Positions 6,126-37,437 of a stretch of 64,000 nucleotides of DNA are shown piece after piece. The stretch's first letter is position 1, and each line of letters starts with the position of its first letter. Source of the stretch: Candidatus Aenigmarchaeota archaeon LH_S7. GTDB taxonomy: Archaea; Aenigmatarchaeota; Aenigmatarchaeia; QMZS01. The notes beneath the pieces were generated by a model that made no database searches, had not been told where the DNA came from, and saw nothing but the letters and a program-made list of their open reading frames with translations. The DNA lies in contig JAGXOL010000003.1 in assembly GCA_023659895.1 (NCBI GenBank), positions 1,549 to 65,548 of the forward strand. The letters run 5' to 3'. The translations under genes and the position numbers were made by a program.

Positions 6126-6821
6126 TTATTTCTTCTTCCTCTTGCCTGTTCTCTTAGGTGCTATGCTGCCAACTTTTCTTCCAGGTGAGGCATGTCTTGA
6201 GGTTGAGGTTGATTGACCAGGTTTTGTCTTTCCACCATATGGATGATCCACAGGGTTCATCTTGCTACCAGAAGTTTTAGGGAATAAACCCCCTCTTGAT
6301 TTTATTCTTCTCCATTTTATTCCAGCTTTCAAAAATGGTTTTGAGACTCTTCCATAACCAGCAGGTTTGCCAACTATTGCCCTGCAATTATTTTTTAATT
6401 TCTTAATTTTTTTGGAAGGTAATTGAATATATGTATTTTCTTTCTCATGGGATTTGACTATAGCAAAAGTCCCTGAGGATTTGCAGTATTTACCACCATC
6501 TTTGTACTTTGATTCCATGAAATAAACAGAGGAGCCTTCAGGGATTTTACCTAAAGGAATTATATTGCCTAAAGCAGGTTTTGCTTCTGGGGAGATTTCC
6601 AATTCCTGTGAAGTTGTAAGGCCAACAGGAGCCACAACATATTCAGTTGAGTTATCCTCAAACTGGATTTTTGCTATAGGGGTATCTCTACCAGAAACAT
6701 GCTTAATATCAATAACCTTAGCTTTTCCTTCTTTTTTGGGTAGTTTTATCTCTTCCCTTTTTTTAGATCTGTAGGGAAAGGTTCCTTTACCTCTTCTCTG
6801 CGAAATAATTCTTTTTCCCAT
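6126..6821 (-). CDS. rpl2: Ribosomal protein uL2
   Basis: 231 aa. Motifs are GRDTPIAKIQFEDN, MNPVDHPYGGKTKPGQSTSTSR and a basic C-terminus. The gene stands alone, with no L23/S19 neighbours. Confidence 0.9.
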   Translation of the reverse strand: MGKRIISQRRGKGTFPYRSKKREEIKLPKKEGKAKVIDIKHVSGRDTPIAKIQFEDNSTEYVVAPVGLTTSQELEISPEAKPALGNIIPLGKIPEGSSVYFMESKYKDGGKYCKSSGTFAIVKSHEKENTYIQLPSKKIKKLKNNCRAIVGKPAGYGRVSKPFLKAGIKWRRIKSRGGLFPKTSGSKMNPVDHPYGGKTKPGQSTSTSRHASPGRKVGSIAPKRTGKRKKK

Positions 6822-6991
6822 AAACCTTTTATTGGCTAAATAATTTAAAAAGGTTTAATCCAAAAAAATGAAATTGGATAACAAAGGGTCTTAGCCCTGT
6901 AAAGAAATTTATATATATAAAAGAGTTATAATTATAAGACTCTATAAATTCCTGTTGGTTTGTCTGGTTTTTGTAGGATTGTTTAGTTAGT

Positions 6992-7105
6992 ATGGGCTGG
7001 AAGGTTTTGTTGGTTGTTGGGATTTTGGTTTTGATTTTAGTGTTTTCTGGAGGTTCTGTTCCTAGTGGAGGTTCTGTTCCTAGTAGTCCACCTGGATTGC
7101 CTTGA
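6992..7105 (+). CDS. Possible 37-aa small membrane peptide (MGWKVLLVVGILVLILVFSGGSVPSGGSVPSSPPGLP)
   Basis: Hand-translated ATG..TGA ORF below the track cutoff. It has one hydrophobic helix and contains a perfect 2 x 18 bp tandem repeat (7049-7066, 7067-7084). There is no other support. Confidence 0.2.
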   Translation: MGWKVLLVVGILVLILVFSGGSVPSGGSVPSSPPGLP

Positions 7106-7131
7106 TCTTTTAAGATACTATTAATTATATT

Positions 7132-7584
7132 TTAAGGGCAATCTGTTCCCTCATACCAATCGCAGTCTGTTGGGTCATCCTCTCTACAACAACAAACATG
7201 GTTTGGCATTGGTATGCCTTCACAAGAAGTTGGATCGGAGGCTTCTTCCAAGTTTACTTCTGCAGAAAGTCCACTACAATAAGCTTTTGCAGTAATCGCA
7301 CCATCAAATTTTTCTTCAAGTCCAGGATAATTAGTACTATCAAAATGATCATAATCATAACTGTATCTCCGCCAGTCCAAACATTCCTTCTGTAAATTTG
7401 CTTCAGAAGTTAATCCTTCTGCAGCAGGATTAAAAATTCCTGTAAAAAACAAAACTATAACTGCAAGTACCAGAACAGAGATAACAATTATAATAATTGT
7501 TTGAATAGATAGAGACACTCCTTTTAGTTTTATGATATTATTTAATTTCTTTAAGTTTACCAAACATTTTCTTATAAACTTCAA
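7132..7584 (-). CDS. Type IV pilin-like secreted protein with a Cys-containing C-terminal domain
   Basis: N-terminal KLKG|VSLSIQTIIIIVISVLVLAVIVLFF fits an archaeal class III signal peptide. The C-terminal block ECLDWRRYSYDYDHFDSTNYPGLEEKFDGAITAKAYC is paralogous to the 10204-10488 product. The listed start overlaps the 7538-7846 gene, so the true start is uncertain. Confidence 0.5.
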   Translation of the reverse strand: MKFIRKCLVNLKKLNNIIKLKGVSLSIQTIIIIVISVLVLAVIVLFFTGIFNPAAEGLTSEANLQKECLDWRRYSYDYDHFDSTNYPGLEEKFDGAITAKAYCSGLSAEVNLEEASDPTSCEGIPMPNHVCCCREDDPTDCDWYEGTDCP

Positions 7585-7846
7585 ATTTTTTTAAAGTTAG
7601 CAAATGCAATTCAAATTCGTAAGGTAATTTTAGTTCTTTCCTTATCTCTGCGATTATTTTGGCTCTTCTCAAACCTTTTTCTGGAATAGAGGACGAGCAA
7701 ATTAAAATATCTATATCACTGCAGGCACTGTACTTTTTTTTAATTACACTACCAAATCCATAGACATGAGTATCACCTAAAATTTTTGTACTTAGTTCTT
7801 TTATTTCTTTTGCATAAGTCTCCCAATTTTTAAAAACTTCATTCAT
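7538..7846 (-). CDS. Minimal nucleotidyltransferase (MNT-type, antitoxin-like)
   Basis: 102 aa with the GFGSVIKKKYSACSDIDILI signature (GS-x9-11-DxD). It overlaps the upstream HEPN gene by 4 bp. Confidence 0.75.
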   Translation of the reverse strand: MNEVFKNWETYAKEIKELSTKILGDTHVYGFGSVIKKKYSACSDIDILICSSSIPEKGLRRAKIIAEIRKELKLPYEFELHLLTLKKFEVYKKMFGKLKEIK

Positions 7847-8217
7847 CCTACTAACTGTATAATTTTCTGGACTACTTCTACAAGTTTTTTTATCTCCGCT
7901 ATTTCAAACTCTCTGGCAAAATACCTTGATGTTATATATGCATCTTCCAATAATGCTAATCCTAAACTTTCGTCCTCCAATAATTTTTTTGCTCTTTCAT
8001 CCAATTCTGCTACCTGTGATAATAGAATCCTCAAAGAATGTGTTTTTGGATAATATCCTTTTTTCTCTAACAAAAAAGATTTTAAAAAAAGTTGTGCCGC
8101 CTGTTCCAAATTAAAAGCTGCTAAATCAAAAATTTTTTTATTTGCTAAACTTTCAGCATTTTCAAAAAAATTTCTCGCTTTCTTCTTTAACAAGTTTGTT
8201 TCTTCTTTTGAACCCAT
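7843..8217 (-). CDS. HEPN domain protein (partner of the MNT)
   Basis: 124 aa, all-helical, with KTHSLRILL and EDAYITSRYFAREF resembling the PF05168-type HEPN signature. It is translationally coupled to the MNT gene. Confidence 0.7.
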   Translation of the reverse strand: MGSKEETNLLKKKARNFFENAESLANKKIFDLAAFNLEQAAQLFLKSFLLEKKGYYPKTHSLRILLSQVAELDERAKKLLEDESLGLALLEDAYITSRYFAREFEIAEIKKLVEVVQKIIQLVG

Positions 8218-16292: not shown

Positions 16293-16540
16293 CTTTATAA
16301 AAGTTTTGCACTTTTAATATAAACCTTCCATAGCGGTTTTAACCACTTCCCTAATATCCCAATTTTCTCATACAATTCAATACTCCACTCAACAAACTTT
16401 CCAACAATTCTTCCTTTTACTGCTCTGACAAAGTGATTAAAACAAGGTTTGTTAAAGAGAGTTCTGAATTTTGACAAAGAAGGAATTATTGATATATTTG
16501 CTAAATATCCTTAAAAACTAAAAAGTGCAAAACTTATATA
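16293..16540. mobile_element. MITE-like non-autonomous element, intact copy (about 248 bp, about 20 bp imperfect terminal inverted repeats)
   Basis: The left end TATAAAAGTTTTGCACTTTT and right end AAAAGTGCAAAACTTATATA are reverse complements. The whole element recurs, split in two, at 29321-29438 and 30634-30775. Confidence 0.65.
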
Positions 16541-16550
16541 ATATAATTAG

Positions 16551-17672
<1,122 letters not shown>

Positions 17673-27615: not shown

Positions 27616-27663
27616 AAATAATGTAGATATTATATATATTATTTTAATACTTAAATAAATTTT

Positions 27664-27671
27664 TTTAAATA
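27664..27671 (+). promoter_or_regulatory. Candidate TATA box for the 16S transcript
   Basis: TTTAAATA lies about 65 nt upstream of the 16S processing stem. Many similar AT-rich words occur nearby, so support is weak. Confidence 0.25.
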
Positions 27672-27735
27672 TGATTATATTATAATCTAGGATTTTCGAG
27701 CCTTTTGGCAATGAAGTAGTCTAATGAAATAGGCT

Positions 27736-27775: not shown

Positions 27776-29233
<1,458 letters not shown>

Positions 29234-29273
29234 AAAAAATTAAAAAGAGGTTTTATCCAAAAAATTGCTTAAG

Positions 29274-29285
29274 CTCCTATCCTGT
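29274..29285 (+). promoter_or_regulatory. 3' half of the 16S processing stem
   Basis: Reverse complement of 27736-27747. Confidence 0.6.
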
Positions 29286-29426
29286 GCGCCAAAATAATTT
29301 AGAAAATTGCTATAAAATACCTTTATAAAAGTTTTACACTTTTAGTATAAACCTTCCATAGCGGTTTTAACCACTTTTCTAGTACTCCCAATCTTTTCAT
29401 ACAATTCAATACTCCACTCAACAAAC

Positions 29427-29438
29427 TTTCCAACAATT
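29427..29438. repeat. Left copy of the 12 bp direct duplication TTTCCAACAATT flanking the nested insertion
   Basis: This 12-mer is present once in the intact element (16399-16410) and twice here (29427-29438 and 30634-30645), at the exact homology breakpoints. Confidence 0.75.
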
Positions 29439-30633
29439 TGAATTTAAATTTCAGTGGACACTGCTCAAAACAGGAGAGCCTTGAATGTGAGTAAATTATA
29501 ATTAATACTAAAAATTTCTATTGGAGAACGAAGTGTAATTGATATTGCCATGATTGTTAGTACTTCCTTCATTTTTAACCTCCTAACTTAATCCTATCCT
29601 TATTATAGAGACCATGGTTCTCAATTCTGATATTACATGTTACTTTATCCCCTCGCCACTCCTCTTTAAATTTTCCAATATAATATTCCTTAGGTTTAAG
29701 AGTAATATCCGTGTTAGCATAACTCAAGTAAACCGTTCCATCTGGTTCTATATTTGTAATTTTCATAAGAAATGGAAGATTTCGTGCATTTGGTAAGGTG
29801 TATATTGGAATTAAGCCCCCTCCACCGCCGCCACCTGGTTCTCCGAGTTCTATTATATTAAGGATTACCATTGATAATTCATTGTTTATTTCAAAATTAC
29901 AGGTTTCACATTCTAAAATTCCGGAATCGTTGTCGAAATGAAGTAGGGGCGGGAAATCTATCATTAATCGACTCCCTGAAATTTCTTGATGGAGACTGAG
30001 AAGGATATAGTCGTCTTGAGGTATTGATCTAGGAAAAACTGCATTTGTGCCATCCCATTCTACAACAACATTAACTTTATCTATATCCTGAATCTCCTCC
30101 AACATCTCACTTCCTGCCTTCATCCCCCACTCATCGCTTCCTTCCACCAACAATATCGCTTTCTCCTCATTCCAGGGATTACTCAAAATCTCCAAAATTC
30201 CTTTATTCTCTCCTGGATATTCCTCAGTTACCCTTGTCGCATCTGTCATATTATATACCTCCTCCAATATCACATTCGATTTTGACGTGCCAACTACAAT
30301 TAAATTATAAGAAGATTTAAAACTTTCAATTTTTTCCGATGATATAACTTCTGGCTTATTACCTATCAGATTTTCCAAATTAGTTGCTATCTCTTCTGCA
30401 CTCTCTTTCTCTATTTGAGAGGCGTTTTCACCAATTACGATTACCGTATTTTCCTTAAAAATCTCAGGAAAATCAGATAGCTTCAGCTCTTCTGCTGGTT
30501 GCGTTGGAGCTTGATGTTCTAAAAGAAAGTAACCAGCGATAATGCAAACCACAATTACTATTCCCAGTATTAAGATTTTCTTCTTCATAATTTATTACCT
30601 CCTCTTTAATTTAAAGTTTTTCGGCCTTTTTAA
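29439..30633. mobile_element. 1195 bp insertion carrying one antisense gene. No transposase and no obvious terminal inverted repeats.
   Basis: It is defined by loss and regain of homology to the intact MITE copy, and is flanked by the 12 bp duplication. Its gene has a strong SD, unlike neighbouring genes. Confidence 0.55.
29575..30588 (-). CDS. Membrane-anchored/secreted protein of unknown function encoded inside the rRNA spacer
   Basis: 337 aa. It has an N-terminal signal/anchor (KKKILILGIVIVVCIIAGYFLL), an internal EPGGGGGGGLIP linker and a CETC pair. AGAGGAGGT lies 8 nt upstream of the ATG (30597-30605). Confidence 0.6.
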   Translation of the reverse strand: MKKKILILGIVIVVCIIAGYFLLEHQAPTQPAEELKLSDFPEIFKENTVIVIGENASQIEKESAEEIATNLENLIGNKPEVISSEKIESFKSSYNLIVVGTSKSNVILEEVYNMTDATRVTEEYPGENKGILEILSNPWNEEKAILLVEGSDEWGMKAGSEMLEEIQDIDKVNVVVEWDGTNAVFPRSIPQDDYILLSLHQEISGSRLMIDFPPLLHFDNDSGILECETCNFEINNELSMVILNIIELGEPGGGGGGGLIPIYTLPNARNLPFLMKITNIEPDGTVYLSYANTDITLKPKEYYIGKFKEEWRGDKVTCNIRIENHGLYNKDRIKLGG

Positions 30634-30645
30634 TTTCCAACAATT
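30634..30645. repeat. Right copy of the 12 bp direct duplication TTTCCAACAATT
   Basis: See 29427-29438. Confidence 0.75.
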
Positions 30646-30777
30646 CTTCCTTTTACTGCTCTGATAAAATGATTAAAACAGGGTTTGTTAAAGAGAGTTT
30701 TGAATTTTGACAAAGAATGAATTATTGATATATTTGCTAAATATCCTTAAAAACTAAAAAGTGCAAAAGTTATAACC

Positions 30778-30785
30778 TTTATATA
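30778..30785 (+). promoter_or_regulatory. Candidate TATA box for an independent 23S transcript
   Basis: TTTATATA (archaeal TTTAWATA-like) ends about 25 nt upstream of the first base of the 23S processing stem (30810). It lies directly after the right end of the mobile element. Confidence 0.4.
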
Positions 30786-30809
30786 AATTTTTTTAAATGA
30801 GATATAGTT

Positions 30810-30893
30810 ATAGATAAAGGGGGTTCCTATTTCCTAAGGAATATGAATCTGTGGAGAGTGTTTATTGCTCAATGAAAGAGTAGGTGTAAGGAA
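30810..30893 (+). promoter_or_regulatory. 5' half of the 84 nt 23S processing stem
   Basis: ATAGATAAAGGGGGTTCCTATTTCCTAAGGAATATGAAT..GGTGTAAGGAA is the near-perfect reverse complement of 33846-33929, with two mismatches seen. Confidence 0.8.
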
Positions 30894-31359
30894 TAGAAAC
30901 ATCTATTTGCTGTTAAGCTATCTAGTGGATGGCTCGGCTTGATATCTGATGAAGGACGTGGCAAGCTGCGATAAGCCCTGGCGAGGTGCATGCTGCCTAA
31001 GAACCAGGGATTTCTTAATTGTTCCTTTTTAGGAACAGGAACGCGGAGAATTGAAACATCTTAGTACCCGCAGGAAAAGAAACCAATTGGAATTCCCTTA
31101 TTAGGGGCGACCGAAAAGGGATGAGAGCAAACCGAACACTTCCTCGTAAGAGAAAGTGAATGTGGTTTTAGGGTGTTCATACTTCCTTTAGAAATTGATT
31201 GAAATTCTCTGGAAAGAGATACCAAAGAGGGTGATAGTCCCGTAAATTGATTTTGAGAGGGAGATTTGAATTGACCCAGAGTATTATCGGTTAGGTTTCC
31301 GGTGAGAACTTGGGAGTCATTAACTTCTAACTCTAAATATAATTCAAGACCGATAGCGA

Positions 31360-31392
<33 letters not shown>

Positions 31393-31961
31393 GTAAAAGG
31401 GAGTAAAAAGAACTTAAAACTAGGTAGTATAGTATCCGTTTCGAATAACGGGGTAAGGAGTATAGGTCTAGGGCTAGACTAATCTTTTGAAGAGAGAAGT
31501 CGTAGCGAAAGCGAGTGCGAAAGTGCGTTAGTCATAGGCCTATTACCCGAAGCCGGACGATCTATTCTCGGACAGGGTGAAGTGTCTCGAAAGAGACATG
31601 GAGGCCCGCACCGTTGCTAGCGTGCTTTCTGCTCGGATGATCTGGGAATAGGGGTGAAAAGCCAATCGAGTTCGGTAATAGCTGGTTCCCTCCAAAATGA
31701 GCCGTAGCTCAGCTTGCCTTTTATAGGTTTATGTGTAAAGTTACTGATTGGGTAGTAGGGGATGAAAGTCTTCGCTACTCAGTCAAACTCTAAAGCGTAA
31801 ACCATTACTGAGGTAGAGTGGGGTTTGCCGGGGAAAGCTCGGTGACCAAAAGGGGAACAACCCTAACCAGCATTAAGGTCCTTAAATAGTGGCTAAGTAC
31901 ACTGAAGGTGTTCTTTCTCTAAAACAATAGGGAAGTAGGCTTAGAAGCAGCCATCCTTTAA

Positions 31962-32003
31962 CCCTTTCCGCTTCGCGCAAAGCGTTAACGGAAAAGGAAA
32001 GAG
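31962..32003 (+). other. 42 nt GC-containing hairpin insertion in 23S, between the conserved GCAGCCATCCTTTAA and AGAAAGCGTAATAGCTCAC
   Basis: The two flanking blocks are contiguous in E. coli and typical archaeal 23S. The insert is self-complementary (CCTTTCC..GCTT CGCGCA AAGC..GGAAAAGG). Confidence 0.6.
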
Positions 32004-33343
32004 AGAAAGCGTAATAGCTCACCTACCTAGAGGAAGTGCGCCGAAGATGGACGGGGTTAAGTCACTTACCGATATGTTGGTTGCCTTTTGGCAATGTAGG
32101 AGGGTGTCTTGGCAGGGCAGAAGTTTCTCTTTAAGGAGAAGTGGACCTGTTAAGAATGAGAATCTTACTGATAGTAACAGCAAAGTGGTGTGAGAATCAC
32201 CATCGCTAGAAGTGGGCAAGGGTTCCCTACCAATTACGATGAGGTAGGGATTAGTCCGTTCCCTAAGAGGATCCCTAACAGAAGTTTTCAAAGGGAAACA
32301 GGTTAACATTCCTGTACCACTAAGTTCTAATCTAACTGGTTAGTTCGGGATAACTTAACGCAAGCTAAGCATTGAAGTCCTTGGAGTCTCGTAATGAGGA
32401 GAAGAGGATGAAGGTGTGTGGCCTTCCTAGAGAAGGTTTAGGTGACTCCTGGATACATTGTAAGCCAGTTAGTAATATTGTTTAGTGACGGTACCCAGAA
32501 CTGACAAGCTATTTCGCACTATGAAGTAAATTAATGCAAAATGCTCAGGAAACAGGTGCCCACGTTGAGTAGGCGAAGGTGTGATAGGATAATCCTGTCT
32601 AGGGAATTCGGCAAATTAGTGGTGTATCTTTGGTAGGAACCATGCCTGTTCTCCTTCGGGAAGGACAGGTCGCAGTTACAAGGAGGGCCCGACTGTTTAA
32701 TTAAAACTTAGCTGACTGCTAGTCCGTAAGGATGTGTATAGTCGGTGAAGCCTGCCCAGTGCGGGTGTGTTAAACCCTTTTTCAAGAGGGTCAAGCCCCC
32801 GTAAACGGCGGCGGTAACCCTGACCGTCTTAAGGTAGCGTAATCCCTTGCCGATTAAACGTCGGCCTGCATGAAGGTCCAACGAGGCCCTCACTGTCCCA
32901 GACAGGAACCTAGTGAACTTTCCTTCTGGTGAAGAGGCCAGAGACTTCCAGTGGGAAGAATAGTCCCTGTGGAGCTTTACTGCAGCCTGCTGTTGTGGTA
33001 ATTTTTGGGGTGTAAAGAGTAGGTAGGAGCTTCGGCGAAAGTGTGACACTACCCTCCCTAAAAATTACTGCTTACTTTTTCGGAAGGACAGCAGTTGGTA
33101 GGCAGTTTGGGTGGGGCGCCACACCCCTAATAAGGTATCAGGGGTGCCCAAAGGTTAGCTCACCGGGGTCAGAAATCCCGGGAAGAGTGTAAACGCAAAA
33201 GCTAGCCTGATTGGATTCCTCCAAGTGCAGAATCCAAGTGCGAAAGCGTGGGTTAACGAAACGCGACCTCGCTTTAATGGCGGCTCGTAACTACAGAAAA
33301 GCTACCCCAGGGGTAATGGAGCTGTGGCCCCCGAGAGTACATA

Positions 33344-33432
33344 GAAGCCTTTTAAAAAAAAAGGCTTCAGCCAAAAAATTAAATCGCCTTCTTTTAAAGG
33401 CTTTTATAATTAATTGTTTTGGTGAGTGCAAA
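33344..33432 (+). other. AT-rich 89 nt insertion in 23S domain V at the helix 89 apical loop (about E. coli 2478/2479); intron or expansion segment
   Basis: CCCCCGAGAGTACATA and TCGACGGGG are contiguous in other 23S sequences. The insert begins with the hairpin GAAGCC-TTTTAAAAAAAAA-GGCTTC and is far more AT-rich than the surrounding rRNA. Confidence 0.65.
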
Positions 33433-33845
33433 TCGACGGGGTGAGTTGCTACTTCGTTGTTGGCTTGCCTCCTCCTGGGTGTGCAGAAGCACCCAAGGGT
33501 ACAGGGGTTTACTGTTTAAAGAGGCACGTTAGCTGAGTTAAGAACGGCGTGAGCCAGTTCGGTCTATATCTGCTGGAAGTGTTCTAGTCTGACAGGAAGA
33601 GAGCTTCAGTACGAAAGGAACAAGTTCTCGTGGCCACTGGTGTACCGGTCGTGATTGCGCTGCCGGGAAGCTAAGCCATCGCGGATAAGAGCTGAAGGCA
33701 TCTAAGCTCGAAGCCGCTCTGAAAAAGAGACTAATTCAGGTGCGGATAGAAGATCCGCTTGATAGAAGAGTGGTGTACGTACCAAGCTTCGGCGAGGTAC
33801 TCAGCCTGCTCTTACTAATTCCTAGACAGCAAATAGATTCTAAAT

Positions 33846-33929
33846 TTCCTTACACCTACTCTTTCATTGAGCAATAAACACCCTCCACAAATTCATATTC
33901 CTTAGGAAATAGGAACCCCCTTTATCTAT
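33846..33929 (+). promoter_or_regulatory. 3' half of the 23S processing stem
   Basis: Reverse complement of 30810-30893. Confidence 0.8.
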
Positions 33930-33943
33930 CTCTAAATAATTTT

Positions 33944-35017
33944 ATGAAGAAAACTGGAATTGCTGACTTGAGATTGTGTACTGGTCCAGTACCACACTAC
34001 AGAGAAATGGTTGAGATTGGGAAACCTTTAATTGAGACTTTAATTAATGAGTTTGGGACCAGAGAAACTGTGGAAAGATTTTCTAATCCTTCCTGGTATC
34101 AGTGCCTTGCCTGCTGCTTAGGATTTGAGTACCAATTCTCAGGGATGACAACTGTTGTATTGAAAGCTCTTAAGGATTCAATTGAAAACCAAAATTTGGG
34201 AATTGAAATCGCTGGAGGGAAAGGAAAGCTAAGTATAGGAGCACCAAAGGAATTAGAGAAATATGGTGAATCATTCAATCTTCCTGAGAAAAATCTGCAG
34301 GGAATGGTAAGCAACACAAAACTTTCCGCGAAGGTTGACAACACAGCAATTCAAGACTCTTATTCCTTGTATTTTCACACCGTCATCCTTGATGAGATAG
34401 GAAACTTCTCAGTGATTAATCAAGGAATGAACACAGGCTCGCAACTTGTGAGAAGATACCACTGGAGCAATCCTTCTGAATTAGATGATTCAAACATAGC
34501 TGGAAAAAAGGAAAATATGGTTTTGGATCTTACGAAAAGAAACTTGGAGGAAACAAGAAGAATGATTTTTGACTTGGCTAAAGAGAGCAACAAGACTGTA
34601 AATACTTATTTGAGATTGAACAAGGGAAGCTTCCAAACCAATTTACTTAATTTCGGGCAGAGAAACATAATTGAGTTACCTTATCATTTGAGATTTCCTA
34701 AGAAACTGAATGAGAAAGCTCTAGAGACAGCAAAGAATGCGAACAATTTCAAAGAATTTCTCTGCTCAAAAGGTGTTGGACCTTCTACAATACGAGGACT
34801 CGCTTTCATTGCAAACTTGGTTTACGGCTCAGAGATATCCTGGAGAGACCCTGTGAAGTTCTGCTATGCATATGGAACAAAAGCTGGAAAACCCTGGTAC
34901 GTTGAGAAAAGAGCAATGAGAAAAAGCGCTGAAATTATGAAAAACGCGGTAGAAAACGCAAAAATGGGGGACAAGAAGAGGAGAAGAGTGTTAAAGAGAT
35001 TATCAAGGTTTGTTTAA
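33944..35017 (+). CDS. Conserved archaeal protein, DUF763-like
   Basis: 357 aa. The N-terminal ADLRLCTGPVPHYREMV..FSNPSWYQCLACCLGFEYQFSGMTTVVLKALKDS resembles the DUF763 signature as remembered. Confidence 0.5.
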   Translation: MKKTGIADLRLCTGPVPHYREMVEIGKPLIETLINEFGTRETVERFSNPSWYQCLACCLGFEYQFSGMTTVVLKALKDSIENQNLGIEIAGGKGKLSIGAPKELEKYGESFNLPEKNLQGMVSNTKLSAKVDNTAIQDSYSLYFHTVILDEIGNFSVINQGMNTGSQLVRRYHWSNPSELDDSNIAGKKENMVLDLTKRNLEETRRMIFDLAKESNKTVNTYLRLNKGSFQTNLLNFGQRNIIELPYHLRFPKKLNEKALETAKNANNFKEFLCSKGVGPSTIRGLAFIANLVYGSEISWRDPVKFCYAYGTKAGKPWYVEKRAMRKSAEIMKNAVENAKMGDKKRRRVLKRLSRFV

Positions 35018-35074
35018 TTTAGTGAGTAAGATGATAGAAGAAGATGTGAGAAACAAAGCAAATAAAACAAGTAA

Positions 35075-35395
35075 TTAACCTAACTCCCGCAGAATATCTT
35101 TGTCTGACTCAAGCACAGGAATTTTTTCTTCCTTTAACTGTCTTACAAGAATCTTGTCAAAAGTCGTGACCTTCAAATTTCTTTTCTTAGCTGCTTCTAT
35201 TAATGAATCATCAGCTTTTTCTTTTTCAGTCTCAATCACCTTAAGCTTTTCAATCAGCGAAAGAAGAACTTTGTCTTTCTTTGCAAGTTCCTTGGCTTCC
35301 TCTATGCAGGGCTTTGTAGTTGCAATCTCTCCAACCCTGAAAAACAATTTTAATTTCTTGTATTCCAAAATCACATTCGTGTCAACCAGAATCAT
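35075..35395 (-). CDS. PIN-domain ribonuclease (small)
   Basis: 106 aa starting MILVDTNVILEY (PIN Asp), with later acidic residues (IEEAKE, TTFDKIL). It overlaps the RNase Z stop by 4 bp. Confidence 0.6.
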   Translation of the reverse strand: MILVDTNVILEYKKLKLFFRVGEIATTKPCIEEAKELAKKDKVLLSLIEKLKVIETEKEKADDSLIEAAKKRNLKVTTFDKILVRQLKEEKIPVLESDKDILRELG

Positions 35396-36270
35396 ACTTT
35401 CACTCTTTTCAAGTCCTTGGCAAGCACAACATTCTTGTAATCTTTAATCTTTTTCTCCAGCTCTTTCTGACTCGTGTACTTCCTGCTGATATGAGTCAAG
35501 TAAACTTTCTTCGCAAATTTTCTCAAGTTTAAAACATCCTCCAAAGTTGAGTGGTACTTGTCTTTTAAATCATCCCTGCTGAAGTATGTGCATTCATGTA
35601 TTAACACACTGTCTTTAGCAAATTTTTCCATTTTCTTCAGGTATTGGGTGTCCCCTGAATAAACCACCTTCTTTCCTGGGACTGTGTAGGAAACATCCCT
35701 TAAATTTATTGTTTTTCCATCTTTTTTGATTTTTCCCTTGTCTTTTATTTCGCGGCAATCCTTCCAGTTCAATTTTAGTTTCTTGATTTTCTTCTTATCT
35801 AATTTTAATTTTTCCCTTTCCTGAAAACGATAAGCAAAATTTTCCGTGGTGTGTTTCCCTTTCATTGCCTCCACTGAAAATTCATCCCCATCAAATACTG
35901 TTCCCTCTAAACAATCAACAAACTTTGTTTTGAAAGGTAGATGGAAGAACTTCAAGAGTTCAGGACCGATTTTCTTAGCTTTTGGTGCAACTATGGTTAT
36001 TTCTTTCTTGCGGCCCTCAAAAGCCATTGAAGTTAATAAACCAAAAAGGCCAATCCAGTGGTCAGCATGCCAATGAGATATAAAAATGTAATCAATTGAC
36101 ATGAAATTTATCCTAGCTTTTTGTAGTTGAGTTTGTGTTCCTTCTCCACAATCAAAAAGTATTGAGTAATCATTCCTTGAGTGGTATCTTAAATGTACAG
36201 CAGGATGTCTCCTTTTTATTGTTGGGATTGTTGTCCCTGTACCCAGGAAAGTGATTTCAACAGATCTCAT
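35392..36270 (-). CDS. rnz: Ribonuclease Z (tRNA 3' endonuclease, metallo-beta-lactamase fold)
   Basis: 292 aa with ITFLGTGTTIPT, the ISHWHADHWIG (HxHxDH) motif and a C-terminal LTHISRKY. Confidence 0.85.
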   Translation of the reverse strand: MRSVEITFLGTGTTIPTIKRRHPAVHLRYHSRNDYSILFDCGEGTQTQLQKARINFMSIDYIFISHWHADHWIGLFGLLTSMAFEGRKKEITIVAPKAKKIGPELLKFFHLPFKTKFVDCLEGTVFDGDEFSVEAMKGKHTTENFAYRFQEREKLKLDKKKIKKLKLNWKDCREIKDKGKIKKDGKTINLRDVSYTVPGKKVVYSGDTQYLKKMEKFAKDSVLIHECTYFSRDDLKDKYHSTLEDVLNLRKFAKKVYLTHISRKYTSQKELEKKIKDYKNVVLAKDLKRVKV

Positions 36271-36321
36271 AACTATTTTATCCCTAATTTAACTAATTCA
36301 TATATTGATAAATAATTGGTT

Positions 36322-37437
36322 ATGGAAAAATGGATACTAGTGCATTATGACGAGATTGCTCTCAAGGGAAAAAACAGATCTTTCTTTGAGAAAAAGTTAG
36401 CTTCAAATCTGAAAAAACTGCTCGGAGGAAAATTGCTAAAGGCCTATGGAAGGATATTGATAAAAACAGATTTAAAGGATAGAGAAATCAAGAAAAGATT
36501 GAGATTGCAGCCAGGGGTAGCAAATTTCTCTTTTTGTTACAAAGTACCTAACAAAATTGAAGAAATAAAAGAAACTGCCTTGGAACTCGCAAAAGAATCA
36601 AAAAGAAAAACCTTCAGAATTGATGCAAGGAAATCTGTTAAGTTCAAGAAAAGTAGCAGGGAAATAAATGAGATTGTGGGAGAAGAGGTTAGAACAAAAA
36701 CCAAGAAAAAGGTCAATTTGAACAAGCCAGGAATCACAATTTACATAGAACTCACTGAGAAAGGAACCTTCATTTACAAAGACAAGTTTAAAGGGGTTGG
36801 TGGACTCCCAATTGATTCTTCCGGAAAATTAATTTCTTTGATTTCAGGAGGAATAGATAGCCCTGTTGCATCCTACCTTGCAATGAAAAGGGGTTGCGAT
36901 GTTGTTTTGATTCATTTCTACAATGAAACCTTGTCAGAGCTGGATAAGATTAATGAATTGTTGGAAAAATTGAGGGGAATCAACCCAAAGATAAAACTTT
37001 ATATGATTCCATTTACGGAAATCCAGAGGAAAATCATTGCAAAAGTGAATTCGAAATACAGAATGATTATTTATCGCAGATTAATGAATCAAATTGCTGA
37101 GAAAATCGCTGAAAAAGATAATGTTAAGGGAATTGTTACAGGAGACTCTCTTGGACAAGTTGCTTCCCAAACCATAGATAACATGAGAGCAATAGATGAA
37201 TCAGTGAAAATACCTATCTTAAGACCTTTACTCACTTACAATAAAAATGATATAATAAAGCTGGCCCAAAAAATTGGAACTTATGAAATTTCAATTAAAC
37301 CTTACCAGGACTGCTGTTCTTTCATGGTAGCCCAACACCCGGAAACAAAAGCTAAAATAGATGTGATAAAAGAAGCTGAAAAGGGATTGAACAAGAAGAA
37401 ATTAATTGAAAAAGCCTTGGATAATTTAAATCTCTAA
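36322..37437 (+). CDS. thiI: tRNA 4-thiouridine synthase ThiI (THUMP + PP-loop)
   Basis: ILVHYDEIALKGKNRSFFE is at the N-terminus and the PP-loop is LISGGIDSPVASYLAMKRG. The ATG at 36322 is preferred over the TTG at 36316. Confidence 0.85.
   Translation: MEKWILVHYDEIALKGKNRSFFEKKLASNLKKLLGGKLLKAYGRILIKTDLKDREIKKRLRLQPGVANFSFCYKVPNKIEEIKETALELAKESKRKTFRIDARKSVKFKKSSREINEIVGEEVRTKTKKKVNLNKPGITIYIELTEKGTFIYKDKFKGVGGLPIDSSGKLISLISGGIDSPVASYLAMKRGCDVVLIHFYNETLSELDKINELLEKLRGINPKIKLYMIPFTEIQRKIIAKVNSKYRMIIYRRLMNQIAEKIAEKDNVKGIVTGDSLGQVASQTIDNMRAIDESVKIPILRPLLTYNKNDIIKLAQKIGTYEISIKPYQDCCSFMVAQHPETKAKIDVIKEAEKGLNKKKLIEKALDNLNL

Follow-up and report, generated by a model that had tools for sequence, protein, structure and literature searches.

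Spacer between the 16S and 23S rRNA genes of an Aenigmarchaeota archaeon probably enlarged by an IS701-derived MITE and a nested, microhomology-flanked copy of a native surface-protein locus

How does a protein-coding gene, framed by an exact direct repeat, come to lie between the 16S and 23S rRNA genes of an archaeon? The question is raised by a 64-kb stretch of DNA from Candidatus Aenigmarchaeota archaeon LH_S7 (hereafter "the window", i.e., the whole stretch that was analyzed), which is archaeal and AT-rich (GC 33.7%) and comes from a host of the Aenigmarchaeota (DPANN). Its 16S–23S spacer holds a copy of a MITE (miniature inverted-repeat transposable element), and this copy is interrupted by 1.2 kb of DNA with a 337-aa open reading frame (ORF), here called S, on the strand opposite to the rRNA genes. 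Overall, the evidence presented below makes it probable that this structure results from two nested events of an ordinary kind: the MITE entered the spacer, and a segment of a native locus, comprising S and the start of its neighbor gene D, was then copied into the MITE by a microhomology-mediated, illegitimate process rather than by transposition.

A MITE copy split at a 12-mer by a 1195-bp insert

When the spacer was compared to the window with blastn, two matches to one and the same 248-bp element were obtained: 29321–29438 matched 16293–16409 (93% identity), and 30634–30774 matched 16398–16538 (96%). These two matches overlap by exactly one 12-mer, TTTCCAACAATT, which is found at positions 16398, 29427, and 30634. 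The features involved are as follows (TIR, terminal inverted repeat).

16293–16540, plus strand: intact MITE copy, 248 bp, an IS701-family deletion derivative; contains the 12-mer once, at 16398–16409.
29324–29438, plus strand: left half of the spacer MITE; its TIR begins TATAAAAGTTTTACAC and it ends with the left 12-mer (29427–29438); blastn 93% to 16293–16409 and 91% to the full-length element L005 (see below).
29439–29499, minus strand: D′, remnant of a PD-(D/E)XK nuclease gene, first 21 codons, 61 nt (tblastn with D residues 1–26, and alignments).
29575–30588, minus strand: S gene for a 337-aa signal-anchored surface protein; ORF intact, antisense to the rRNAs.
30589–30633, minus strand: upstream region brought in with the S gene; its distal 16 nt (30618–30633) are native-like (13/16).
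30634–30774, plus strand: right half of the spacer MITE; starts with the right 12-mer (30634–30645) and ends with the right TIR; blastn 96% to 16398–16538.

The DNA between the two 12-mers (29439–30633) is 1195 bp long and contains a single long ORF. Since each 12-mer coincides exactly with one of the two points where the MITE homology is broken, their repetition is not a matter of chance. An earlier, sequence-only reading of this DNA had described the spacer MITE as split, with the 12-mer on both sides of the insert and single in the intact copy, and both the blastn matches and the alignments agree. It had also noted that the insert lacks a transposase and TIRs, which our terminal repeat search and ORF analysis confirmed: the best pair of inverted repeats in the insert (16 nt, 81%) is AT-rich, not terminal, and unconvincing, and no transposase or recombinase is encoded there, the single long ORF specifying an S-layer-like surface protein. 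No second copy of the 1195-bp unit was detected in the window, and the loci related to the insert (L023, L026, L002, L003, and L008) either run past its ends or differ beyond them. Among four properties tested for a transposable unit, three were absent from the insert (defined ends, a transposase, and recurrence) and one, the flanking direct repeat, was present. Together with the native origin described below, these features indicate that the 1195-bp insert is neither a discrete nor a foreign mobile element.

Additional exact copies of the 12-mer are found on the minus strand at 36956 and 59750, within coding sequence. We rejected them as candidate recombinase sites: both encode xLLEx codons, and the excess of one-mismatch copies over shuffled sequences is small once MITE copies are left out. 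The copy at 36956 is nonetheless involved in the Logan join described below.

Origin of the insert in a native S–D locus

Next to the question of what the insert lacks stands that of where it came from. In two sister metagenome-assembled genomes (MAGs), at loci L023 (GCA_023658875.1) and L026 (GCA_023658915.1), the S gene lies directly upstream of a 403-aa gene, D, which encodes a PD-(D/E)XK nuclease (PF12705, E = 1.5e-35) with homologs annotated in many Aenigmarchaeota. L023 also includes an S paralog upstream, and L026 begins inside S. Positions 905–2062 of L023 align to window positions 30598–29436 at 91.4% identity, and positions 4–1043 of L026 to window positions 30475–29436 at 94.6%. In both loci, native homology ends at the same base, at the AAT (29436–29438) inside the left 12-mer. 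The start codon of the D′ remnant has changed from ATG to ATA in the window, and a 17-nt indel upstream of S holds a TATA-like TTTAAATT and a Shine–Dalgarno (SD) sequence (30597–30605). Divergence from the native locus is mosaic: the first 150 nt of S are 68% identical to L023, the last 470 nt 96%. Overall, the alignments identify the insert as a native Aenigmarchaeota S–D locus in truncated copy, extending from ~45 nt upstream of S to codon 21 of D.

The foreign origin put forward in the sequence-only reading is not supported by these comparisons. Native S–D loci are found in sister MAGs, the GC content of the insert (35.3%, vs 32.6% for the window once the rRNA genes are excluded) is not anomalous, and the SD sequence lies in an indel of native-like upstream sequence. 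We had also considered the 35 nt upstream of S as DNA of a third origin, and dropped this candidate after a three-way alignment identified them as diverged native upstream sequence with the 17-nt indel.

Between S and D, a small SD-led ORF (MKEVLTIMAISITL..) is present in the spacer and in the native loci alike, at 29502–29574 in the window (35 aa) and, in a shorter form, at 1923–1998 in L023. This small ORF past the S stop codon was evaluated as the stub of a VWA-type downstream gene seen at L002 and L003, and rejected: only SD-ATG-AAG-GAA aligns, and the real stub is that of the nuclease gene.

Microhomology at both junctions

The ends of the native homology can be examined against the MITE sequence into which they are joined. 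At the left junction, native locus and MITE share the three nucleotides AAT. At the right junction the match is imperfect (8/12), the native upstream sequence reading CTTTGTTTGATA and the MITE AATTGTTGGAAA. When the right 12-mer is taken together with the next 16 nt, 21 of 28 positions match the native upstream sequence, a value reached by none of 20,000 resampled 100-nt stretches; without the 12-mer, the right side still matches at 13 of 16 positions (P about 0.001).

These observations bear on the claim that the 12-mers represent the classic target-site duplication (TSD) of a mobile insert. We did not find this to hold: the insert is a truncated native copy that stops at codon 21 of D, microhomology is found at both ends, and no second 1195-bp copy was found.

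The MITE as a derivative of an IS701-family insertion sequence

We then considered the element into which the insert was placed. In a search of one genome per GTDB species, a 22-mer taken from the element matched Candidatus Aenigmarchaeota archaeon LH_S4 only, at three loci (L004, L005, and L006). At L004 and L006 the copies are short and share their internal junction with those in the window. L005 holds, at 6690–7910, a 1.2-kb element with perfect 20-bp TIRs (TATAAAAGTTTTGCACTTTT), to which the ends of the MITE align, and a 385-aa ORF. This ORF matches the IS701 family transposase model of NCBIfam (NF033540; 163.7 bits vs a cutoff of 150, E = 7e-48) as well as Pfam DDE_5 and DDE_Tnp_1. Other full-length copies of this insertion sequence (IS), with 98–99% identity, were identified in a further sister MAG as well as a sibling run. 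Full-length copies are on record for the sister MAGs JAGXOI and JAGXQL and for run SRR14170876; none is found in the 64-kb window.

The short element consists of the first ~30 and the last ~45 transposase codons joined in frame, and this in-frame fusion of N- and C-terminal remnants accounts for a ~70-codon open frame on the minus strand of the MITE. The left half of the spacer MITE accordingly carries a C-terminal transposase remnant on its minus strand (..RIVGKFVEWSIELYEK..), and the right half shows the same internal deletion junction as the copy at 16.3 kb. MITE copies occupy unrelated loci with different flanks (window 16293, window 29324, L004, and L006). All of this indicates that the MITE is a short, non-coding, multi-copy, internal-deletion derivative of an IS701-family IS, which would require a transposase acting in trans. 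The name "MITE" given to it earlier was thus apt for a TIR-bounded, non-autonomous element that is split in the spacer, and is now to be qualified by its descent from an IS with full-length relatives.

The order of the two events can be read from these copies. The 12-mer site is uninterrupted in three full-length IS copies and in three other MITE copies; in each of the three full-length copies the 12-mer occurs once, as continuous transposase coding sequence (..GRIVGKF..). Since it is uninterrupted within the transposase ORF, the uninterrupted state is ancestral, and since the spacer copy carries the junction by which the MITE lost its transposase, the insert is later than the formation of the MITE.

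Several further observations concern the IS/MITE family itself. The two LH_S4 MITEs (L004 position 6570 and L006 position 3219) have two 5-bp deletions in common, one of which takes CAATT out of the 12-mer; sharing of these secondary deletions implies that the short form has itself spread, and marks a MITE subfamily whose spread came after the deletions. A candidate TSD of the spacer copy was noted as follows.

29319–29323 and 30775–30779, no strand: ACCTT, direct repeat around the composite element; tentative 5-bp target duplication of an IS701-type element.

This repeat may be the MITE's own target duplication. No consistent TSD was found for the family across six copies: ACCTT is seen at the spacer copy only, and the other five have none that is clear. 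At L004, L005, and L024, the two flanks are mutually reverse complementary (AACTA...TAGTT, AAGAAT...ATTCTT), which suggests AT-rich palindromes as targets. At the right end of the intact MITE (16521–16562), a TATA-like CTTATATAA lies ~20–29 nt before an ATG at 16560, so this copy may supply or replace the promoter of the gene starting there. On the reverse strand of L001, at ~1401–1420, the MITE left terminus reads ACCTCTTATATAAATTTTACAG, which is nearer to the flank on the 23S-promoter side than to the TIR, and looks as if converted from the direct repeat opposite (compared: window 29319–29340 and 30775–30791). A 21-mer from the MITE had no match in JGI metagenomes, and a literature search, which was not exhaustive, returned no report of this IS701-type IS/MITE family in DPANN archaea.

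Proposed history and competing explanations

Given these data, a two-step history can be proposed. The 248-bp MITE would have entered a tRNA-less spacer of ~211 nt, 5 bp upstream of the TATA box that precedes the 23S rRNA gene. Later, 1.2 kb of the lineage's own chromosome, i.e., S and the start of D, would have been copied into the MITE. Priming at the native look-alike of the 12-mer (CTTTGTTTGATA vs AATTGTTGGAAA) may have followed a break in the MITE or a fork stalled there, with synthesis proceeding through S into D and the new strand re-annealing to the MITE via AAT, 12 nt behind the position that it had left; a return point 12 nt behind the departure would leave the 12-mer on both sides of the insert. 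A Campbell-type single crossover of a circularized fragment at the 12-mer would be an alternative route to the same product. Overall, template switching or microhomology-primed repair appears to fit the anatomy of the junctions better than transposition.

A number of points weigh against this history. Its mechanism is deduced from junction anatomy only, and a staggered enzymatic cut, too, should produce an exact 12-bp duplication. The donor locus was not found in the window's own strain, where look-ups used the ThiI-like gene and its neighbor, the exact proteins not being on record; copying and moving, as well as transfer within the genome and between strains, are therefore both compatible with the data, and the right-hand microhomology is read from alleles that differ from the strain's own donor allele. 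Expression of the antisense S gene and reduced read-through from the 16S rRNA gene, both discussed below, are likewise inferred. If the 12-mers were a true TSD, a 12-nt staggered cut in the MITE would have been joined to an S-bearing fragment, not necessarily a defined element, and fill-in would have made the repeat; the cut could be assigned to a transposase from a different, long-TSD IS family, to a casposase- or integrase-like enzyme, or to a nuclease. Such an origin is attractive in that the repeat is exact, 12 bp long, and located at both edges of the insert, at a site within IS-derived sequence and in a lineage with active IS copies. We nonetheless consider it quite unlikely: the insert has neither TIRs nor a transposase nor a second copy, one of its ends falls inside a truncated neighboring gene, cut-and-fill does not predict microhomology at both ends, and the resident IS701-type copies show 5 bp (ACCTT, at the spacer copy) at most, and never 12 bp. 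The converse polarity, in which an element first carrying S gave rise to the 248-bp copies through deletion between its 12-mers, could appeal to short-repeat deletions being common and to our own estimate of a chance of ~0.2 for a 12-bp repeat in a 1.4-kb AT-rich element. It can be set aside almost entirely, as the 12-mer region is continuous coding sequence in the three full-length IS copies, the spacer copy shares the transposase-deleting junction with the short copies, and the insert corresponds to a truncated copy of the native S–D locus; on the first of these grounds, the 16.3-kb copy was excluded as a deletion derivative of a long form.

Further points against the two-step history come from other assemblies and concern the right junction. 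One additional feature is needed here.

36955–36967, minus strand: inverted 13-mer GAATTGTTGGAAA in the ThiI-like gene, the site at which contig L007 joins the right end of the insert.

The left junction, in which the left half of the MITE leads through the 12-mer into the insert, recurs in L001 (GCA_023659905.1) and in L007, a contig of a Logan assembly of the window's own strain (SRR14170872), but the right junction (insert, 12-mer, MITE right half) is found only in the window and is absent from both, so that the caution voiced earlier about a chimeric assembly was justified. L007 is 100% identical to window 29409–30646 (1238 bp), its first 30 nt equal window 36938–36967, and it joins the right end of the insert via the 13-mer to window 36954–36938, inverted and 6.3 kb away. 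A second Logan contig, L009, equals window 33846–36967 and ends on the same 30-mer (L009 3093–3122; L007 1–30), which implies that a node of the k = 31 graph branches between the ThiI-like gene and the right end of the insert. L001, for its part, has 75 nt of native-type upstream sequence followed by window 34541–34487, inverted, from a DUF763 gene, with 9/10 microhomology at the join. Each of these alternative joins would imply that the segment with the 23S rRNA gene is inverted; the reciprocal junction was not recovered by look-ups of the ThiI-like gene and its neighbor. As a side observation, comparison of L001 1–140 with window 34487–34541 and L023 819–914 places the DUF763 gene downstream of the 23S rRNA gene and gives the microhomology as ACGAnAAGAA.

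The window structure might then be in part an artifact of assembly or library preparation, or show just one among several arrangements that co-exist: the left junction would be real, the right end would have a different partner, e.g., through an inversion of the 23S segment that unlinks 16S and 23S, and the apparent insertion with its TSD would merge different molecules. This reading gains from the Logan contigs, which are 100% identical to the window and yet branch from the 36938–36967 node to the right end of the insert, from L007, which reads past the position at which the window-type junction ought to branch off, and from L001, where the S upstream region is also joined to an inverted downstream gene. 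We regard it as unlikely. A 12- or 13-mer is too short to mislead assemblers at k of at least 21, so reads must support the window junction; this junction abuts a multi-copy repeat and may have been pruned by the cleaning of the Logan graph; and the 5′ part of L001 could be a second native S copy collapsed in assembly, its contig having alternatively walked through a two-copy repeat. Inverted joins at microhomologies within a few kb are typical of amplification chimeras, and the joins seen here, at 10–13 nt within 4–6 kb, would fit that pattern.

Both linked and unlinked rRNA organizations have been reported for Aenigmarchaeota, and metagenomic assembly of rRNA regions is difficult (PMC8997704). 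There is perhaps a slim chance that the three different joins at the right end of the insert reflect genuine alternative states of the chromosome, in a lineage now unlinking its 16S and 23S rRNA genes via short-homology inversions. If so, the locus would provide a mechanistic snapshot of rRNA unlinking in which an IS-derived element and captured DNA seed flips of the 23S segment, and every flip would also place the surface-protein gene behind a different promoter. Overall, the copying of a native S–D segment into a resident MITE is the history that we consider the most probable.

The S protein and its expression

The antisense ORF had been described as a 337-aa signal-anchored protein, and its N-terminal hydrophobic helix was recovered here. 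It is intact both in the window and in L001, which represents a 98% identical strain, the sole difference in length being an in-frame 6-bp indel. Ratios of non-synonymous to synonymous polymorphism (pN/pS) were 0.27–0.39 between the spacer copy and other copies and 0.27 between two native copies. With constraint like that of native copies, the S gene in the spacer looks functional.

S has 190 relatives. An AlphaFold2 model (pLDDT 88.7) displays a signal-anchor helix, then an N-terminal alpha/beta domain that resembles the anchoring domain of an S-layer protein, and finally a C-terminal beta-sandwich. Among PDB structures it is matched best by 9fsa (TMt 0.73), the cell-wall anchoring domain of the S-layer protein from Methanococcus voltae, followed by BcsB and glucuronidase domains. 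The Pfam family PF05124 (S_layer_C) scores 16.9 bits against S, below the cutoff of 23.9, and many of the homologs carry PF05124. The S product is most likely a membrane-anchored surface protein. A metagenome protein scan with S returned distant relatives of its N-terminal domain only, none beside rRNA. This domain (~130 residues) is 55–73% identical in Methanophagales, Aerophobetes, WOR-3, Cloacimonas, and others, while the C-terminal parts differ (proteins P0015, P0019, P0034, P0050, and P0058; loci L010–L022), which suggests a module that is often transferred, with exceptionally high conservation across domains of life.

The SD sequence reported earlier for S was found where expected: ACCTCCTCT at 30597–30605 corresponds to the SD AGAGGAGGT, 8 nt from the S ATG. 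The antisense gene may be expressed from this SD and its own TATA-like box. SD sequences of at least 6 nt precede only ~3 of 57 ORF starts in the window, and most starts have a TATA-like box at ~-25/-30. The earlier statement that other starts lack an SD was thus close to correct in that SDs are rare, and the foreign origin drawn from it does not follow. The 3′ end of the 16S rRNA gene (29225–29235) reads GGATCACCTCA, not ..CCTCC.., leaving just CCUC/ACCUC as anti-SD; as the rRNA ends in ..CACCUCA, GAGGU alone of the SD can pair. These patterns suggest that translation in the window is mainly leaderless. GGAGG is also found in relatives of the S gene, e.g., at L003.

The rRNA locus around the composite element

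The composite element lies within the following features.

27776–29235, plus strand: 16S rRNA gene (archaeal SSU; Rfam RF01959, 1390 bits).
29236–30900, plus strand: 16S–23S spacer, 1665 nt, tRNA-less (Rfam, ARAGORN).
30770–30812, plus strand: promoter-like stretch with TTTATATA at 30778–30785, just outside the element; 74% identical to the 16S upstream region 27642–27684.
30802–30913, plus strand: 5′ strand of the 23S processing stem, pairing with 33826–33937; 112 nt, 90% complementary, -167 kcal/mol.
30901–33838, plus strand: 23S rRNA gene (Rfam RF02540, 2190 bits).

No tRNA was detected by ARAGORN and Rfam in the whole 64-kb window, spacer included, which upholds the earlier description of the spacer as tRNA-less; without the composite element, it would measure ~211 nt and still contain none. 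Likewise, Rfam and ARAGORN identified no 5S rRNA in the window. The 16S and 23S rRNA genes are adjacent, on one strand, each with its own flanking processing stem. For the 16S rRNA gene, the flanks form a modest stem (z = -4.6). The 23S stem is exceptionally long and almost perfect, and the gene at 33944 begins 7 nt past it. Separate processing stems for 16S and 23S are the usual arrangement in archaea, so they give no indication of an uncoupled operon, as had been suggested from them.

The TATA-like TTTATATA that had been placed directly after the right end of the element is indeed present at 30778–30785. It belongs to a 43-nt promoter-like stretch common to the regions upstream of the 16S (27642–27684) and 23S (30770–30812) rRNA genes, including AAATTTTTTTAAAT. 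On its plus strand, the insert contains several T5–T7 tracts. These tracts and the second promoter-like element argue for at least partial transcriptional independence of 16S and 23S. Transcription of the 23S rRNA gene from its own promoter-like element is plausible and could predate the insertions; read-through from 16S to 23S may now be reduced, which would leave 23S dependent on that element.

Comparison with known systems

Taken together, this locus is best seen as a genome scar of an ordinary type that lies in an unusual location, rather than as a new mobile element. On the favored reading, it provides a worked example of how an apparent mobile element with a TSD can instead be host DNA, copied into an IS relic by a microhomology-mediated process, and it documents both an IS701-type IS/MITE family in Aenigmarchaeota and an antisense protein gene inside an rRNA spacer. 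More broadly, a spacer grown ~eight-fold, a promoter-like element before the 23S rRNA gene, and hints of inversions are relevant to the loss of rRNA operon linkage in DPANN archaea; only confirmation of the rearrangements by reads or RNA data would change the current understanding of that loss.

Like other IS701-related IS/MITE pairs, the spacer element has IS ends and an internal deletion, occupies several loci across at least two genomes, and falls into subfamilies with common secondary deletions; these subfamilies and the multi-locus spread would mark trans-mobilization. It differs in that no consistent target duplication could be read from its copies, in that three insertion sites look palindromic, and in its DPANN host.

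The composite as a whole (29324–30774, 1451 bp) has IS-type TIRs at both ends, the S gene, and no transposase, and so appears to have the architecture of a mobile insertion cassette (MIC). A MITE carrying a passenger is exemplified by the qnrS2 cassette of Aeromonas (PMC5444012). With this cassette and the IS231-type MICs of Bacillus cereus, the composite shares IS-type inverted ends around a passenger, the absence of a transposase, and a cognate transposase in the lineage. Unlike them, it is single-copy (genome-contig and metagenome scans returned the spacer copy only, and no sign of its movement as a unit was found), and its passenger seems to have arrived by a nested, microhomology-flanked insertion together with the stub of a neighboring gene.

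The insertion itself resembles microhomology-mediated templated insertions, i.e., those ascribed to microhomology-mediated break-induced replication and fork stalling and template switching (MMBIR/FoSTeS) or to alternative end joining: the insert copies another locus, homologies of 3 nt and ~8/12 nt are seen, a short target duplication flanks the insert, and one end falls at an arbitrary point in a gene. Those processes were defined experimentally, mostly in bacteria and eukaryotes, whereas the present case would be one from an archaeon.

Finally, the rRNA genes combine traits of linked, tRNA-less operons (the crenarchaeal or TACK type) and of the unlinked rRNA genes of DPANN archaea and Thermoplasmatales: 16S and 23S on the same strand, no tRNA in the spacer, a processing stem for each, and no 5S nearby. 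Unlike other archaeal rRNA operons, this one has a spacer inflated ~eight-fold by mobile and captured DNA, in which a protein gene lies antisense, together with a second promoter-like element. This places the window's arrangement between the linked and the unlinked state.

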